Part shown: positions 2,834 to 47,292 of the stretch, one piece after another
How the letters are laid out: the number at the start of each line of letters is the position of its first letter
How positions within the stretch are numbered: the stretch's first letter is position 1
IMG/VR virus record: IMGVR_UViG_3300045988_165978
DNA from: a virus
DNA: 49,278 nt
Strand: one strand, 5' to 3'
Position numbers and translations under genes: made by a program
The notes under the pieces: model-generated
Told to the model about the DNA's origin: nothing
Database searches by the model: none
The model's input: only the letters and a program-made list of their open reading frames with translations

Positions 2834-2990
2834 CTTTTTTTAATTGACTTTTTCTATAAACCAATAGTATAATATCCACCGGGACGACGGTATTGCTGCG
2901 CCGTACTCCTACAATTTTATGTGAGCGTAAGAGAAGTGAACCCCTTTGGTTAGATAATTCTAACGAAAGGGGTTTACTTCTTGAAGAATT
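2834..2990 (+). ncRNA. plus-strand unit U1: consensus promoter (TTGACT-18-TATAAT, 2834-2863) -> about 100-nt transcript -> hairpin CCCCTTTGGTTAGATAATTCTAACGAAAGGGG + T-rich tail
   Basis: Promoter motifs read directly. Hairpin with palindromic loop at 2940-2975. No ORF. Confidence 0.45.
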
Positions 2991-3120
2991 TGACTTTTTC
3001 AATGAACCAATAGTATAATAACTATAAAGAGATAGTCGGTATTGGATCACCGGCTCTCCCCGTAATTAAAAAATTTGACGGAAGGCCGTGTAACCGCAGG
3101 TTATGCGGTTTTTCTCATTT
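2990..3120 (+). ncRNA. plus-strand unit U2: consensus promoter (TTGACT-18-TATAAT, 2990-3019) -> about 90-nt transcript -> terminator ACCGCAGGTTATGCGGTTTTTCTCATTTT
   Basis: Near-identical promoter to U1 (ttgactttttc.a..aaccaatagtataat). GC hairpin + U-run at about 3088-3118. Shares CGGTATTG...CCG...CTCC with U1. Confidence 0.45.
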
Positions 3121-3326
3121 TATTTTCGAAATGAGAGAATGACTACTATAAGAGTTGCAAAACCTATCATTAAAGATAAGGTTTCATAAACAGTCATAGC
3201 ATCACCCCCTACTCTTTTGGAGTAGGAAAACCGATTACCGACTATCTCGAAAATTATTATAGCATAACTAAACATATTTTTAAATAACAGGGAATATACC
3301 CCGGTTATTTCTTTATGATAAGCAAA

Positions 3327-6730: not shown

Positions 6731-6778
6731 TTTATATTCCTCCGTTTCTTCACAGAGAAATATTACATTTTTGCAGTT

Positions 6779-7333
6779 TTATTGAATAATTACAGGTATC
6801 GTTTTCCCTACTTGTGATTGCATCCACAATATTAGCGAAGAATCATTCGTTGGAAGTTCAATATAATAATATGTATTCCCTTCTACTGGGTTCAGTGTAT
6901 AAGTAGAATTATTAATAGTAAGTTTTATTGTAGATTGACTTAATCCAATAGAAAATGATATCCATAATATATGTAGTAATATCATTTGACTACTAGGATC
7001 TACACTCTGACCAACAGCTAACGATGTAATCTTACTGCCTTTAAATATATTTGGCTCAATACTTCCATATACTTTGCCATCAGCAAATTCAGCACTACTA
7101 TATCCATATTCCCATTGATTTCCACCGTAAGTATATTCACCAATCGTCAAACCTATTCCATCCAACTCTGCACTAACCGTAATATCCCCCGTGACTATTA
7201 CTTTAATAGGGTTTTGAGTCAGATCAATTTCAGAATAAGTCTGTAAAGGCGAGCGTTGATGTCCCCCCCCAGCAACACATTGGTTTTCACTATCTCCAAC
7301 GCTATTCACTGCAATAATATCTTTGTTTTCCAT
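6779..7333 (-). CDS. tail fibre-associated protein, paralog B (184 aa from ATG 7333; the ORF track extends to 7435)
   Basis: GGAGGG 6 nt upstream of ATG at 7333. Motif NPIKVIVTGDITVSAEL. The track's 5' extension overlaps the upstream gene. Confidence 0.6.
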   Translation of the reverse strand: MENKDIIAVNSVGDSENQCVAGGGHQRSPLQTYSEIDLTQNPIKVIVTGDITVSAELDGIGLTIGEYTYGGNQWEYGYSSAEFADGKVYGSIEPNIFKGSKITSLAVGQSVDPSSQMILLHILWISFSIGLSQSTIKLTINNSTYTLNPVEGNTYYYIELPTNDSSLILWMQSQVGKTIPVIIQ

Positions 7334-30730: not shown

Positions 30731-31234
30731 ATGTTAAAAATCTATATTGCAAACTTAGGAAAATACAACGAGGGAGAATTGGTGGGTAAATGGGTTGAAT
30801 TGCCCTGCGAAGACTTAGACGAAGTTTTAAAAGAAATTGAAGTTGTAGACGGTACAGCTTACGAAGAATACGCCATACACGATTATGAAAGCGATATTGA
30901 AGGTTTAAATATTGGTGAGTATGATAATATATTCTCACTTAATGAGATAGCCGAAAAATTAAACGAGTTATCAGACTATGATAAAAATTGGTTAGAGGCT
31001 TATTTGGATGCCTCGGGCGAAGACTTGTTAACAGCTTTAGAACAATTCGAGGATAATTCTTATTTCTACAAAGATATGACCTTAGAAGACGTTGCAGAAG
31101 AATTAGTTTCAGAAGGCTGTTTTGGTTATATTCCAGATTCTATAGCAATTTATATTGATTATGCTGCCATTGCAAGAGATTTAGAATGTGATTCTTATTT
31201 TGAAACAAAACAAGGTGTTATTTATCTTTGTTAG
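30731..31234 (+). CDS. ardA: antirestriction protein ArdA (167 aa)
   Basis: N-terminus MLKIYIANLGKYNEGELVGKWVELPC...DYESDIEGLNIGEYDNIFSLNEIAEKLNEL matches the ArdA family closely. Highly acidic. Confidence 0.85.
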   Translation: MLKIYIANLGKYNEGELVGKWVELPCEDLDEVLKEIEVVDGTAYEEYAIHDYESDIEGLNIGEYDNIFSLNEIAEKLNELSDYDKNWLEAYLDASGEDLLTALEQFEDNSYFYKDMTLEDVAEELVSEGCFGYIPDSIAIYIDYAAIARDLECDSYFETKQGVIYLC

Positions 31235-31315
31235 TCGAAACGCTTGCAGTCTGCAAGCGTCAGCCGTGGGATAGCCTCCCGGCTCTGATGATGACAGGCT
31301 AGAAAGGAGATAAAA

Positions 31316-40554: not shown

Positions 40555-40788
40555 TCAACGACCTCTATAATCTTTGATCATTCTATTGGCAAGCGGACCA
40601 GACAGCAGCGTTCCTTTTGTTTGTACGATACAGTTTTTATCATCACGACAAACTTTCACGGCCCGCATGAGCGACGGATCATAAAGAAGTTTCCAGTCCC
40701 CAGCTCTAAGCCGCTTCCCGCACCGAAAGCACTTAGAATTACTCATGCTTGGCACCTCCATTACCTTGTCCTTCGCCATTGCTTTCAA
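40555..40788 (-). CDS. zinc-finger small protein (77 aa)
   Basis: CFRCG...C..D.NC. Confidence 0.45.
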   Translation of the reverse strand: MKAMAKDKVMEVPSMSNSKCFRCGKRLRAGDWKLLYDPSLMRAVKVCRDDKNCIVQTKGTLLSGPLANRMIKDYRGR

Positions 40789-41305
40789 TTATATTTTTGA
40801 CAACCTTTTCTAAATCATTCCTGATATTCTTTAACGGTTCTAATATTGTTTTTAAAGCATCTTCAACATCGGCATAATCATTAGGATTAAATTCTATCTT
40901 TGCGGCCCCTTTACTCAAAAATTCCATCAGCTTTTGCTGTTGTTTAGATTGTTGTATTACCGCTTCATCATCGGTATAACCGAACCTATCCCATAGATAG
41001 GATTCAATACAGGCAATGCAAAAAAGCAGCTGATCTTCCACTTCTTTAATGACTGTAGCGGGAATGAACTCAAAGTGGCTTGAAATTTCTCCTACGGGAC
41101 GATGTATCTCTATGGCTTTACTGTTATAACTCTCTTTCGTTTTGTATGAAATATTTATGGTAATGCTTGAAACCTGGTCTGTTACTTCGTTTTTTATCTC
41201 TCTGAGCTTTTCTAATTTCTCTTTATAGTAGTCCCTCGTTTTTACATAAAAGCTCAATTCTTTTAGGCTTTCCTTGTTTAAATAGCGGATTTCCATCGTG
41301 ATCAT
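40739..41305 (-). CDS. hypothetical protein (188 aa), first gene of a leftward operon
   Basis: Long ORF. Start adjacent to the regulatory region 41306-41660. Confidence 0.55.
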   Translation of the reverse strand: MITMEIRYLNKESLKELSFYVKTRDYYKEKLEKLREIKNEVTDQVSSITINISYKTKESYNSKAIEIHRPVGEISSHFEFIPATVIKEVEDQLLFCIACIESYLWDRFGYTDDEAVIQQSKQQQKLMEFLSKGAAKIEFNPNDYADVEDALKTILEPLKNIRNDLEKVVKNIIESNGEGQGNGGAKHE

Positions 41306-41322
41306 CCTTTCTGATTTTATGG

Positions 41323-41455
41323 TTGAAAATTTTTCAAATTCTGCTATAATATCTTTTGCACGAAGGCGTGCAAGGTTCTCCTATATTTGGTGGGTTTTTA
41401 TTTTTGTTGTGATTTCCCCCATTCGCGGTTAGGTTATTCTAACCGCATCTTTTTT
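41323..41455 (+). ncRNA. plus-strand unit U4: promoter TTGAAA-16-TATAAT (41323-41350; -35 embedded in palindrome TTGAAAATTTTTCAA) -> about 95-nt transcript -> terminator GCGGTTAGGTTATTCTAACCGC + T7
   Basis: Read directly. Hairpin loop GGTTAGGTTATTCTAACC is nearly identical to the hairpin of U1 at 2950-2970 (GGTTAGATAATTCTAAC). Confidence 0.45.
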
Positions 41456-41532
41456 TATATATGGAATTGTTTTTATAGGATCTTTTATAAATAGCATTGG
41501 AGAAATACCAATCAAAATTTTTAAAATCCATA

Positions 41533-41662
41533 TTGAAAATTTTTCAGCTTATGCTATAATAACTTTCGTACGGTCAGTACTCTCGTTTTCTAAATTTTTT
41601 CTCACAATTTTATCCATTCCCTTATGCTGTTAACACACCAACGTTAACAGCTTCTTTTTTTA
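41533..41662 (+). ncRNA. plus-strand unit U5: promoter TTGAAA-16-TATAAT (41533-41560, same palindromic -35) -> about 95-nt transcript -> terminator CTGTTAACACACCAACGTTAACAG + T-run
   Basis: Near-identical promoter to U4. The terminator also ends the minus-strand HTH gene 41660..41839. Confidence 0.45.
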
Positions 41663-41839
41663 TTCAAATAAATCTTTGACTTCTACTTTCAGTACCTTAG
41701 CAATTCTCTCTAAAGTACTAAGTCGAACGTCCCCACCATTTTCAAGGCTTGTTAAAGAATTGAATGATATTCCAGTTTCCTTACATAGCCGATATTTACT
41801 TACCTTTTTTTCTAGTCTGACTTTTTGAACATTCAACAT
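41660..41839 (-). CDS. XRE-family HTH protein (59 aa)
   Basis: Not in the ORF track (<60 aa). GAGGGAG ribosome-binding site + ATG. MLNVQKVRLEKKVSKYRLCKETGISFNSLTSLENGGDVRLSTLERIAKVLKVEVKDLFE is a classic Cro/C1-type HTH. Confidence 0.55.
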   Translation of the reverse strand: MLNVQKVRLEKKVSKYRLCKETGISFNSLTSLENGGDVRLSTLERIAKVLKVEVKDLFE

Positions 41840-41931
41840 TTGACCAAAGCTCCCTCATTATGTTATTATTTGTATGCAGAATAAATAACTTATTCATAAT
41901 GATGTTTCGATATTGGATTGGAGGTTTATTT

Positions 41932-42135
41932 ATGAATGCTTTTGTAAAATTAAAAAGTAATGATTCTTTAACTATCAAAAATCTTTCATCTATCAAAACA
42001 AATTTAACCGACCAACAAAAAGACGTTGATATAAACAACTTTTTCTTGGACGAGATTCCGTATTTATTCATAGGAGATGAAAAACTATCTGTACACGGAA
42101 TTGATATCGAATATATACTTCTAACAAAGAACTAA
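41932..42135 (+). CDS. hypothetical protein (67 aa), divergent from the small HTH gene
   Basis: GGAGG ribosome-binding site 11 nt before ATG 41932. Followed by a perfect terminator at 42145-42180. Confidence 0.5.
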   Translation: MNAFVKLKSNDSLTIKNLSSIKTNLTDQQKDVDINNFFLDEIPYLFIGDEKLSVHGIDIEYILLTKN

Positions 42136-42144
42136 ATCAAATTT

Positions 42145-42185
42145 CTTACATAGAGGATACACGTACAGTTGTATCCTCTTTTTAT
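42145..42185. terminator. rho-independent terminator AGAGGATACACGTACAGTTGTATCCTCT + TTTTATTT
   Basis: Read directly. Confidence 0.7.
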
Positions 42186-42311
42186 TTCTGAAATTTTTTT
42201 AATGATTGTTTCTAATTTCTCGATAGTTGTTGGACCTTCGACGTTAATTTTAACTACGAGCTCACCGCTACGATTTCCCATTTTTACCCCTTCTTTCTAA
42301 AACTTCTGACT

Positions 42312-42473
42312 TTACAGCCCCATTACCCGACCTTCTGCTACACCGCAGGTATAAATTAGAATTGCAGTCAGAATTGCTGCCGTTACGGTGAATACCCACA
42401 TAGCAGGATAATGTGCTATACTATCTAATCCATCTACGATAATATCTATTGCCGCTAAATAAAGCCCTTTCAT
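42312..42473 (-). CDS. small membrane protein (53 aa)
   Basis: Not in the ORF track. GGAGGCAG ribosome-binding site + ATG. MKGLYLAAIDIIVDGLDSIAHYPAMWVFTVTAAILTAILIYTCGVAEGRVMGL. Confidence 0.45.
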   Translation of the reverse strand: MKGLYLAAIDIIVDGLDSIAHYPAMWVFTVTAAILTAILIYTCGVAEGRVMGL

Positions 42474-45025: not shown

Positions 45026-45161
45026 TGTCTCACCGCCTGTCGTTGTTTTTACTTTACACGTCAATTATAAATAGCTTATCATATTTTGTCAAGCAAAAAC
45101 AACAGTTTTTTATTTCCTTTTTGTTTAGTATAGTTTACAATATTCTGAGGAGGTGTAAACT

Positions 45162-45551
45162 ATGCCTAACGAATTTTCTGAGTTTATACGAGCAAAACGT
45201 GGGAATATGTCTTTACGCGAATTTGCTAAATTATGTGGTAATCTTAGCCATACTCAAATCGACAGTATAGAAAAAGGTTTTGACCCAAGAACATCTAAAC
45301 CAGTTAGCCCAACTATAGACACATTAAATAAAATAGCAAAAGGAATAGGTGTATCTGTTTCTTATCTGGCTGCATTGGCAGTTAATGAGCCATATTCAGA
45401 TCCATTACGTTTAACACTATTGGAAAAAAAACGTATAACAAAGTGTCGCCAACTTAGCCCCGATGATGTAGAAGACATCGACGAAATGATTGATTTTAAA
45501 TTAGAGAAAGCTTTAAGAAAAGAAAGAGCTATACAAAACGCGGTAATATAA
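45162..45551 (+). CDS. CI-like XRE-family repressor (129 aa)
   Basis: GAGGAGG ribosome-binding site. HTH MSLREFAKLCGNLSHTQIDSIEKG. Same strand as integrase, divergent from cro-like. Confidence 0.65.
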   Translation: MPNEFSEFIRAKRGNMSLREFAKLCGNLSHTQIDSIEKGFDPRTSKPVSPTIDTLNKIAKGIGVSVSYLAALAVNEPYSDPLRLTLLEKKRITKCRQLSPDDVEDIDEMIDFKLEKALRKERAIQNAVI

Positions 45552-46284: not shown

Positions 46285-47292
46285 ATGATTAACAGTATTC
46301 AATATACACAAGATACTCAAGAAGATTTATACAACTTACTTAAAATTTTAAAGTTACCAGTACGAATACTTAATAATAACATGAATTATTGGTTTGTGCG
46401 GACAGAATCTGGCAAATATTATAAAGATTTTTTGTTTAATAGTTATATTGCTGTTGGTTGGAACTATATTAATATTTTATCCAAAGATAACGATGACGAA
46501 AAAACAATAAAACTCATTAAAGAAAAATACCCCGATGCTATACCAGGAAGAGTTCTGAATCCTATTAAACGTTTTTGTCAAGAAATGCAACCCGGTGATT
46601 TAGTTATAATACCAAGTACATCTTCTGCAACTTTTGCTTTTGGTATTATAAAATCTGATCCATATATAGAAACTATAAAAGAACAATATGTTAGTGATGA
46701 TCTTTCAGTATCATGTCCATATATTAAAAGAAGAACCGTTAAATGGTTAAGTTCATTAGAAAGGCATCGGTTAGACCCAAATTTATTTCAATTTTTCCGA
46801 GCACATCAAACCATTTCTAACGCTACCAGATATGCAGATTATATAGACAGAACTTTAAATACATTATACATAAAAAATGATATTGCTCATATAATTTTAG
46901 ACGTATGTACTCAAAAGAATATTCCAGCTAATAAATTGATTAAATTTATTTCAGGATTACTGAACTATTTGAACAAAGTAACAGACGACCCTACCGCTTC
47001 AAATGATATAGATATAAAGCTAAACGTACAATCTCCTGGCATATTAGAATTCATTGGTTCACCTATAAAAATCGCTATTATAGCTCTAATATTTCTTTTC
47101 ATTGTCGGTGGAGAGGCCAAATTTAGTAAGCAGGGATATGATATTGAATTCAGCCTCAAAACTCAGGGCTTAATTGAAAAAGGAATACAATACTATGAAC
47201 GAGTATTAAAAGAAAATATAGATCCTTCTGAACTAAAAGATGAAATTGAACAATTAAAAATAAAAGACCCAACAGGTATACCGCGGGTCTAA
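46285..47292 (+). CDS. AT-rich membrane-anchored protein (335 aa): large cytoplasmic N-domain (NYWFVRTESGKYY...IAVGWNYI...GDLVIIP) + single TM at about 262-280 + short C-tail. Candidate superinfection-exclusion / abortive-infection protein
   Basis: AAAAGGAG ribosome-binding site. Markedly lower GC than neighbours. Located between repressor and integrase on the lysogeny strand. Confidence 0.65.
   Translation: MINSIQYTQDTQEDLYNLLKILKLPVRILNNNMNYWFVRTESGKYYKDFLFNSYIAVGWNYINILSKDNDDEKTIKLIKEKYPDAIPGRVLNPIKRFCQEMQPGDLVIIPSTSSATFAFGIIKSDPYIETIKEQYVSDDLSVSCPYIKRRTVKWLSSLERHRLDPNLFQFFRAHQTISNATRYADYIDRTLNTLYIKNDIAHIILDVCTQKNIPANKLIKFISGLLNYLNKVTDDPTASNDIDIKLNVQSPGILEFIGSPIKIAIIALIFLFIVGGEAKFSKQGYDIEFSLKTQGLIEKGIQYYERVLKENIDPSELKDEIEQLKIKDPTGIPRV

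Follow-up and report, generated by a model that had tools for sequence, protein, structure and literature searches.

Two tandem promoter-terminator units, candidate genes for antisense small RNAs, in the early lytic region of a temperate phage

Results

The 49,278-nucleotide viral DNA IMGVR_UViG_3300045988_165978 from the IMG/VR collection, the whole of which is referred to as the window, contains at positions 41323-41661 of the plus strand two promoter-terminator units arranged in tandem. The left unit (promoter at 41323) was designated U3 and the right unit (promoter at 41533) U4, the names U1 and U2 being given to another pair at 2844-3120. As proposed in the initial annotation, both comprise a TTGAAA-16-TATAAT promoter, and each of these is followed by a terminator (Table 1). 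In either promoter, 11 of the 12 hexamer positions agree with the consensus and the -10 element is in addition extended by a TG. The terminator stem-loop of U3 (41425-41446) reads GCGGTTAGG-TTAT-TCTAACCGC and continues into ATCTTTTTTT; that of U4 (41626-41651) reads GCTGTTAAC-ACACCAAC-GTTAACAGC and continues into TTCTTTTTTT. The distance from promoter to terminator is approximately 95 nucleotides (nt) in both units, which recur with a period of 205-210 base pairs (bp). Common to U3 and U4 are a promoter block of 40 bp (85% identity) and a terminator tail of 19 bp (89%); the transcribed cores are unrelated in sequence. A reading of the region as a replication origin with iterons was rejected, as these duplicated promoter and terminator blocks are its sole repeats.

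Table 1. Positions of the two units and of the genes and signals discussed with them (window coordinates, unless a locus label is given; aa, amino acids; sRNA, small RNA; HTH, helix-turn-helix; ORF, open reading frame)
Feature	Position	Strand	Description
U3 promoter	41323..41350	+	-35 TTGAAA 41323-41328; 16-nt spacer; extended -10 TGcTATAAT 41342-41350
U3 RNA, predicted, ~100 nt	41357..41456	+	fold z = -4.5 versus shuffles
U3 intrinsic terminator	41425-41456	+	GCGGTTAGGTTATTCTAACCGC, then T-run
U3 module, 150 bp	41311..41461	+	promoter, predicted sRNA and terminator; always at the 5′ end of the 188-aa gene
U4 promoter	41533..41560	+	-35 TTGAAA 41533-41538; 16-nt spacer; extended -10 TGcTATAAT 41552-41560
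U4 RNA, predicted, ~95 nt	41567..41661	+	fold z = -5.0 versus shuffles
U4 intrinsic terminator	41626-41661	+	GCTGTTAACACACCAACGTTAACAGC, then T-run
Accessory island, 971 bp	41311..42281	.	between the 53-aa gene and the 188-aa gene, inside the leftward early lytic operon
59-aa XRE/Cro-type HTH gene	41660..41839	-	lytic strand; Pfam HTH_26, E=1.2e-12
Third unit	41840..42179	+	promoter TTGACC-18-TATTAT 41840-41869; 67-aa ORF 41932-42135; terminator 42152-42179
188-aa gene	40739..41305	-	phrog_34679; next gene after the units when read in the lytic direction
53-aa membrane-protein gene	42312-42473	-	upstream edge of the island
Cro-like HTH gene, 78 aa	44828-45064	-	divergent with the CI-like gene; marks the genetic switch
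CI-like HTH gene, 129 aa	45162-45551	+	divergent with the Cro-like gene; marks the genetic switch
U1 promoter	2844-2873	+
U2 (within 2844..3120)	promoter 2990-3019; terminator 3080-3114	+
Hol-Tox peptide gene, 25 aa	3120..3197	-	MTVYETLSLMIGFATLIVVILSFRK; Pfam PF16935 Hol_Tox, E=1.9e-9, 37.7 bits vs cutoff 23.3
Distant-relative unit	L008 2852-3001; L025 2353-2501; L031 2339-2501	minus strand of loci	predicted promoter-sRNA-terminator

The window was scanned for promoters with a score of at least 11 that are followed by a terminator ending 40-140 nt past the -10 element, and the same scan was applied to 100 dinucleotide shuffles of the 49-kb sequence. Three such units were detected in the window, namely U2, U3 and U4, while 99 of the 100 shuffles contained none and the remaining one contained a single unit. 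By themselves, promoter-like hexamers show no enrichment in this AT-rich region (9 observed versus 8.0 expected). Judged from the DNA sequence, U3 and U4 are real, self-contained promoter-terminator units, far beyond what is expected by chance.

Transcription from the two promoters would generate RNAs that are predicted to fold far better than shuffled versions of the same sequences (Table 1). The predicted U3 RNA comprises a 5′ hairpin (41357-41372), the single-stranded stretch UCUCCUAUAUUUGG, a weak C-rich middle hairpin and the terminator stem. The predicted U4 RNA is composed of a short 5′ hairpin (41568-41580), a long U-rich unstructured core and its terminator stem, and in both RNAs the 5′ hairpin begins at the predicted transcript start. 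The 3′ end of U4 abuts the stop codon of the 59-aa HTH gene. No ORF of at least 20 aa preceded by a ribosome-binding site is present on either strand of the U3/U4 region (41300-41670), and readings as smaller ORFs were rejected on both strands, where ribosome-binding sites are absent and a 9-codon ORF on the lytic strand is not conserved in one relative (L006; the loci compared throughout are labelled L001-L037). Rfam 15 gave no match in the U3/U4 region at the gathering threshold, and at a permissive threshold the best E-values belonged to implausible eukaryotic small nucleolar RNA models far below threshold. With regard to a reading as an RNA anti-CRISPR or a solitary CRISPR repeat unit, no match to the CRISPR-DR models of Rfam was found inside either transcript. 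U3 and U4 most likely yield small non-coding transcripts.

The window represents a temperate siphovirus-like phage or prophage, and the same phage was found within metagenomic contigs of 127-257 kb. Its host is probably Phascolarctobacterium, because terminase relatives with 46-55% identity occur in metagenome-assembled genomes of this genus and one homologue of the 188-aa protein is annotated as originating from it. The divergent CI-like and Cro-like genes mark the genetic switch, from which nearly all genes run leftward; the lytic genes are all leftward, that is, on the minus strand. U3 and U4 lie on the lysogeny-oriented plus strand and are thus directed head-on against the early lytic operon. 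In the lytic direction they are succeeded by the 188-aa gene and then by replication genes (encoding a DUF3850/ASCH protein, a cytosine methylase and SSB), and the ribosome-binding site and start codon of the 188-aa gene are covered directly, at the DNA level, by the U3 promoter. The AlphaFold model of the 188-aa protein, with a predicted local distance difference test score (pLDDT) of 57.7, was too poor for a fold search. Comparison of this protein and of the U3/U4 region with an annotated phage collection by blastn and tblastn revealed no relatives, and searching the alignment of the 188-aa family against the GTDB representative genomes gave no confirmed locus.

The initial annotation had taken position 41305 as the start of a leftward operon. 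This position lies in mid-operon, as in two relatives (L010 and L011) the 188-aa gene follows the gene for the 53-aa membrane protein after 31 nt. Furthermore, neither a promoter nor a terminator is predicted on the minus strand between 41306 and 41950. Given the lack of minus-strand signals, the leftward orientation of the lytic genes and the contiguity of the two genes in L010/L011, the lytic transcript is probably continuous through the site and would have to cross U3 and U4 in antisense.

Both units reside in an accessory island of this temperate phage, which supports the initial annotation in so far as the region is a regulatory or accessory one. The island is absent from L010 and L011, whose 188-aa protein is 96% identical: homology detected by blastn stops at ~41310 and resumes at ~42282. 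Homologues of U3 with 78-83% identity are present in L006/L007 and L012/L019, where the homology ends just past the terminator, and close variants are likewise found in L015, L016 and L017. The promoter hexamers of U3 are invariant across all homologues, the 5′ hairpin and the terminator are kept in the consensus structure of 6 variants, and U3 is 88% identical where the neighbouring gene is 82% identical. U4 is present only together with U3.

With at least five gene contents in otherwise syntenic phages, the junction between the 53-aa and the 188-aa gene is a hot spot for cargo. In L012/L019 the entire insert consists of U3, and in L006/L007 U3 is accompanied by different cargo genes. Phages of the window type (L001-L005, L013, L014 and L016) carry U3, U4, the 59-aa HTH gene, the 67-aa gene and a 49-aa ORF. 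The cargo of L017 comprises U4, the HTH gene, two other genes in the orientation of the putative sRNAs and an 84-aa ORF on the lytic strand, and that of L015 comprises U4 and then four lytic-strand ORFs without an HTH domain. The third unit of the island is an accessory gene (moron) that encodes an orphan protein: the homologues of the 67-aa protein were near-identical copies only, and PHROGs and PADLOC searches with the island proteins returned generic HTH matches only. The 49-aa ORF (42132-42281, minus strand) and the 67-aa gene overlap at their stop codons, and the terminator hairpin at 42152-42179 lies inside the 49-aa ORF. A match to the promoter pattern in L018 (2672-3100) was discarded; it corresponds to the leader of an unrelated CRISPR array with a repeat of approximately GTTATTTAATTAATCCCCAATACGGGGACGGAAAC and represents a chance match to a generic strong promoter.

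In more distant relatives (L008 and L025-L034), whose homologues of the 188-aa protein are 35-48% identical, a gap of ~147-162 bp at the same junction likewise contains a predicted promoter-sRNA-terminator unit, on the strand opposite to the lytic genes as in U3. Its promoter reads TTGTCC-17-TGcTAAAAT in most of these loci and TTGTTC-17-TGtTAAAAT in L031, and the RNA, predicted to be ~85-93 nt long, would carry a 5′ hairpin and a terminator of 13-14 bp, the stem of which shows compensatory changes between L025 and L031. There is no detectable sequence similarity between this unit and U3 or U4. Between L008 and L025/L032-L034 the unit is 93-96% identical over its whole length, compared with 77-81% for the flanking genes. 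Because the distant relatives keep a sequence-unrelated unit at this junction that is more conserved than the flanking genes, a small predicted antisense transcription unit next to the 188-aa gene is a maintained feature of this phage group, though a dispensable one, since L010 is without it.

Next, we considered the palindrome at the promoters, which the initial annotation had regarded as a likely operator. The -35 element of U3 indeed lies within the perfect 7-1-7 palindrome TTGAAAATTTTTCAA (41323-41337), and the corresponding region of U4, TTGAAAATTTTTCAG, matches in 6 of 7 half-site positions. On the suggested model, both promoters are controlled through TTGAAAATTTTTCAA as an operator, with the 59-aa XRE HTH protein or one of the ribbon-helix-helix type as regulator, which would make the region an HTH-governed hub. 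The ORF was correctly recognised as a small XRE HTH gene (Table 1), and it adjoins U4 in the window, L016 and L017. However, across the homologues only the left half of the palindrome is invariant, which is simply the -35 hexamer itself, whereas the right half varies at symmetry-critical positions (TTTTCAA, TTTTCAG or TTTTAAA). Moreover, no further copy with up to 2 mismatches was found upstream of the HTH gene (41840-41930), at its own promoter, or in the CI/Cro switch (45064-45162), and a palindrome of A/T runs is unremarkable in AT-rich DNA: at this stringency 7 matches were observed in comparison with 2.7 expected, and 2 of 100 shuffles reached 7. The gene distribution likewise argues against a hub. 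L015 contains U3 and U4 but no HTH gene, U3 occurs without it in L012/L019 and L006/L007, and in the window and L017 the HTH gene travels together with divergent protein-coding genes of the sRNA orientation. As U3 and U4 occur without it, control of the units by the HTH protein is unsupported; by its distribution, the gene is variable cargo with no obligate link to U3/U4. Thus, the palindrome itself stands, perfect in U3 and imperfect in U4, and its role as an operator is improbable.

The other promoter-terminator pair of the window, U1/U2, had been described as paralogous to U3/U4 despite a distance of 38 kb. It lies next to the gene for a 25-aa Hol-Tox peptide, which is preceded by a strong ribosome-binding site and is convergent with U2, and on the Hol-Tox strand Rfam gave matches below threshold to rli28 (E=0.0028) and BsrG (E=0.011). 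By gene content, U1 and U2 belong to a Hol-Tox type I toxin locus (2844-3275) and have a functional context unlike that of U3/U4. The large hairpin of U1 is not followed by a U-tract, and U1 may read through into U2. A perfect inverted repeat of 13 bp, GAGATAGTCGGTA / TACCGACTATCTC (3029-3041 and 3236-3248), brackets the Hol-Tox gene; therefore, the 5′ end of U2 and the 5′ untranslated region of the toxin mRNA would carry the same sequence, and the Hol-Tox mRNA could fold back on its own 3′ end if the transcript reaches the repeat.

The resemblance between U3 and U1 is restricted to the 17-nt top of a hairpin, GGTTAGGTTATTCTAAC in U3 (41427-41443) and GGTTAGATAATTCTAAC in U1 (2948-2964), which are identical at 15 of 17 positions (16 of 17 in L012). 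The GGTTAG hairpin with GGTTAGGTTATTCTAACC had been assigned to U4; the match is real, but the hairpin is that of the left unit, U3. In the local alignment of U1 with U3, 1 of 500 shuffles scored as well before correction for 6 pairwise comparisons, and the arms of a palindromic hairpin are not independent, so that this score reflects few independent positions. The alignments of U2 with U3, of U2 with U4, and of U1 with U4, the pair for which paralogy had been proposed, revealed no significant similarity of the transcripts. From the motif CTCCTAYA(A)TTT(TA)TGTG, which had been described as common to the transcripts, the part CTCCTAYA(A)TTT is present in U1 (CTCCTACAATTT) and U3 (CTCCTATATTT), but TGTG is out of register (U3 has GGTGGG), none of it occurs in U4, and CTCC changes to CTCT in U3 homologues. 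A shared hairpin top thus does not extend to transcript-wide paralogy.

These data bear on a possible type I antitoxin function, in which U3 and U4 would be paralogues of U1/U2 and would neutralise Hol-Tox or the 53-aa membrane protein encoded upstream. Type I antitoxin RNAs of Firmicute prophages (RatA/txpA, SR4/bsrG and Hol-Tox) have a comparable layout, with a promoter, an RNA of ~100 nt beginning with a 5′ hairpin and a terminator, and are convergent with a neighbouring gene; the class is represented in the window by U1/U2, which do flank the Hol-Tox ORF. A further argument, besides the similar hairpin top, is a small hydrophobic ORF (53 or 41 aa) on which the unit converges in L012 and the distant relatives. 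In contrast to these RNAs, U3 and U4 have no toxin partner: 41300-41670 contains no toxin-like ORF, the convergent gene is that of the HTH protein, and in the window ~0.85 kb of cargo lies between the U3 terminator and the 53-aa gene, which L010/L011 retain without any sRNA unit. The duplex energies with the 5′ region of the Hol-Tox mRNA are ordinary, as 77 (U3) and 142 (U4) of 200 shuffles were as good, and neither U3 nor U4 shares transcript-wide similarity with U1 or U2. We therefore regard an antitoxin function as very improbable. Rather, the two promoter-terminator pairs of the window appear to differ in function, one belonging to a type I toxin locus and the other being antisense to the early lytic operon.

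Discussion

U3 and U4 are oriented against the lytic genes and, in the lytic direction, directly precede the 188-aa gene, after which come the replication genes. This leads us to favour, with slightly less than even confidence, the reading that they are independently transcribed cis-antisense sRNA genes of the prophage, which damp lytic read-through into the 188-aa and replication genes. According to this model, the strong constitutive sigma-A promoters of U3 and U4 would fire in the lysogen, and the RNAs would pair with the intergenic leader in the polycistronic lytic mRNA, to which they are perfectly complementary. An RNase III-type enzyme, for instance, could cut the resulting duplex, and interference might be added by convergent transcription from the units. 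Either effect would damp leaky or incoming lytic transcription into the 188-aa and replication genes, with tighter lysogeny or a barrier to superinfecting phages carrying the same module as the outcome. Both the expression of U3/U4 and their antisense effect on the lytic transcript are presumed here.

Several points weigh against this model. The expression of the units is a prediction made at the level of sequence, and the relatives L010/L011 without any unit indicate that the element is dispensable. The 188-aa protein, as the presumed first target, matches a PHROG in the category of unknown function. As ~40 nt would remain between the end of the duplex and the ribosome-binding site that serves the 188-aa gene, a direct block of translation of this gene is unlikely. 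Moreover, close variants of U3 are six only, so that informative covariation is almost nil, and U4 is nearly invariant in L015, L016 and L017, which leaves selection at the RNA level unsupported for this unit. Finally, the C-rich, anti-Shine-Dalgarno-like stretches of U3 (UCUCCU and UUUCCCCCAU) would fit an action in trans on host mRNAs equally well.

This last point raises the question whether U3 and U4 are trans-acting sRNAs, borne as morons, that pair through C-rich, anti-Shine-Dalgarno sequences with host or phage mRNAs, their antisense position being incidental. Both UCUCCU and UUUCCCCCAU are predicted to be single-stranded in U3, the core of U4 is long and unstructured, and C-rich seeds are used by Firmicute sRNAs such as RoxS/RsaE and LhrC; such a function would also suit units that share a variable accessory island with a gene pointing the same way. 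However, in the 49-kb window no complementarity above chance was found elsewhere, the best matches being A/T-rich 10-14-mers, and pairing with the Hol-Tox 5′ region is, as described above, no better than that of shuffles. In addition, the CUCC sequence is not conserved but reads CUCU in U3 homologues, and the strict linkage of U3 and of the distant-relative unit to a single junction would be unexpected for a free-standing regulator in trans. We consider this alternative unlikely.

A single candidate for a target in trans was noted: 26 nt of the U4 core (41586-41611) match L037 exactly (6771-6796), antisense to an ORF for a 90-aa zinc-ribbon-like protein. L037 is an unrelated IMG/VR phage contig with 29% GC and has no proteins in common with the window. 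The match probably arose by chance, as the string is T-rich and a huge collection was scanned for exactly this string; that U4 targets a competitor phage is the less probable reading.

Alternatively, the RNAs might be without function and the units could act at the level of DNA, the convergent promoters and unidirectional terminators interfering with lytic read-through or insulating the accessory genes. Interference between face-to-face promoters is established for coliphage 186. In line with such a role, conservation is highest in the promoter hexamers and terminators, the cores of U3 and U4 are unrelated to each other, and the U3 promoter covers the translation start signals of the 188-aa gene. 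Nevertheless, the U3 core is conserved as well as the promoter, including an invariant 5′ hairpin stem and an invariant CCCCAUU, and the 93-96% identity of the distant-relative unit extends throughout, beyond its signals. A function of the DNA alone thus appears distinctly unlikely, more so than an action in trans.

Antisense sRNAs of phage early regions are already known, among them OOP, sar, c4, P4 CI and STnc6030. The c4 RNA of P1/P7, the CI RNA of P4 and the sar RNA of P22 are small phage RNAs that act on the phage's own early transcripts and maintain immunity. These RNAs either arise by processing of longer transcripts or have defined target sites upstream on which they act, and repeated target sites in the manner of c4 or P4 CI were not found for U3/U4 in the window.

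The closest parallel in organisation to the cis-antisense model is the OOP RNA of phage lambda (pO-oop-tO, between cII and O). Like the predicted U3 and U4 RNAs, OOP is a short RNA with its own constitutive promoter and an intrinsic terminator, is transcribed against the early operon at a junction just upstream of the replication genes, and is complementary to the polycistronic early mRNA. According to the work referred to in PMC5869508, OOP brings about RNase III-dependent cleavage of the cII-O mRNA. There is, however, no homology in sequence or structure between OOP and U3/U4. Whereas OOP overlaps 52 nt of the cII coding region, U3 and U4 cover non-coding spacer only; they are two tandem units with a common promoter block and belong to an unrelated phage with a Negativicute as presumed host, so that a shared mechanism is proposed by analogy. 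Another precedent is STnc6030 of the Salmonella prophage BTP1, an antisense RNA against lytic genes that lysogens express and that keeps out superinfecting phage (PMC7067206). It resembles U3/U4 as predicted here in being encoded by a prophage, having its own promoter and opposing lytic genes, and it is highly expressed in lysogens. The length of STnc6030, however, exceeds 700 nt, and the genes on the other strand are structural and injection genes, whereas the RNAs predicted here measure ~100 nt and oppose the intergenic leader of an early operon. U3 and U4 are unlike any curated RNA family in sequence, such an element is undescribed in these phages, and the regulation of the group is uncharacterised.

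A more far-reaching possibility, which we regard as doubtful, is that the 188-aa junction is a determinant of RNA-based immunity or exclusion that exists in non-homologous allelic types, namely U3 alone, U3 with U4, and the type of the distant relatives. If this were true, the antisense RNA of each lysogen would block the transition from early transcription to replication in incoming phages with the same module, gut Negativicute phages would fall into immunity groups specified by RNA, and the terminator-flanked site would serve the variable cargo as a hot spot for insertion.

Phascolarctobacterium is an abundant, poorly tractable genus of the human gut whose phage regulation is unstudied. Provided that they are expressed, U3 and U4 would make lysogeny control and superinfection immunity in its prophages accessible through simple elements that can be mutated. 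Moreover, a predicted antisense unit is kept at one junction even in relatives whose divergence exceeds what sequence comparison can recognise, which suggests that an OOP-like control point recurs outside the lambdoid phages.

Additional features of the window

On the minus strand near U1, a further promoter-terminator unit (2540-2778) comprises the promoter TTGAAA-18-TGtTAAAAT (2778-2749) and two terminators (2608-2576 and 2567-2548). It encloses a perfect inverted repeat of 16 bp (2618-2633 / 2733-2748) and an ORF of 41 aa that lacks a clear ribosome-binding site; the unit may specify another structured RNA, for which Rfam gave no credible match. Downstream of the CI-like repressor gene, a plus-strand gene (46285-47292) encodes a 335-aa protein that matches PDC-S02 in PADLOC (E=3.2e-24). 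As PDC-S02 is a candidate anti-phage family, this gene looks like a prophage-borne defence gene. Finally, a type II hammerhead ribozyme is located at 31233-31303 on the plus strand, between a 167-aa ORF (plus strand) and a 133-aa ORF (minus strand); the match to Rfam RF02276 is full-length, with 46.4 bits compared with a gathering threshold of 37.

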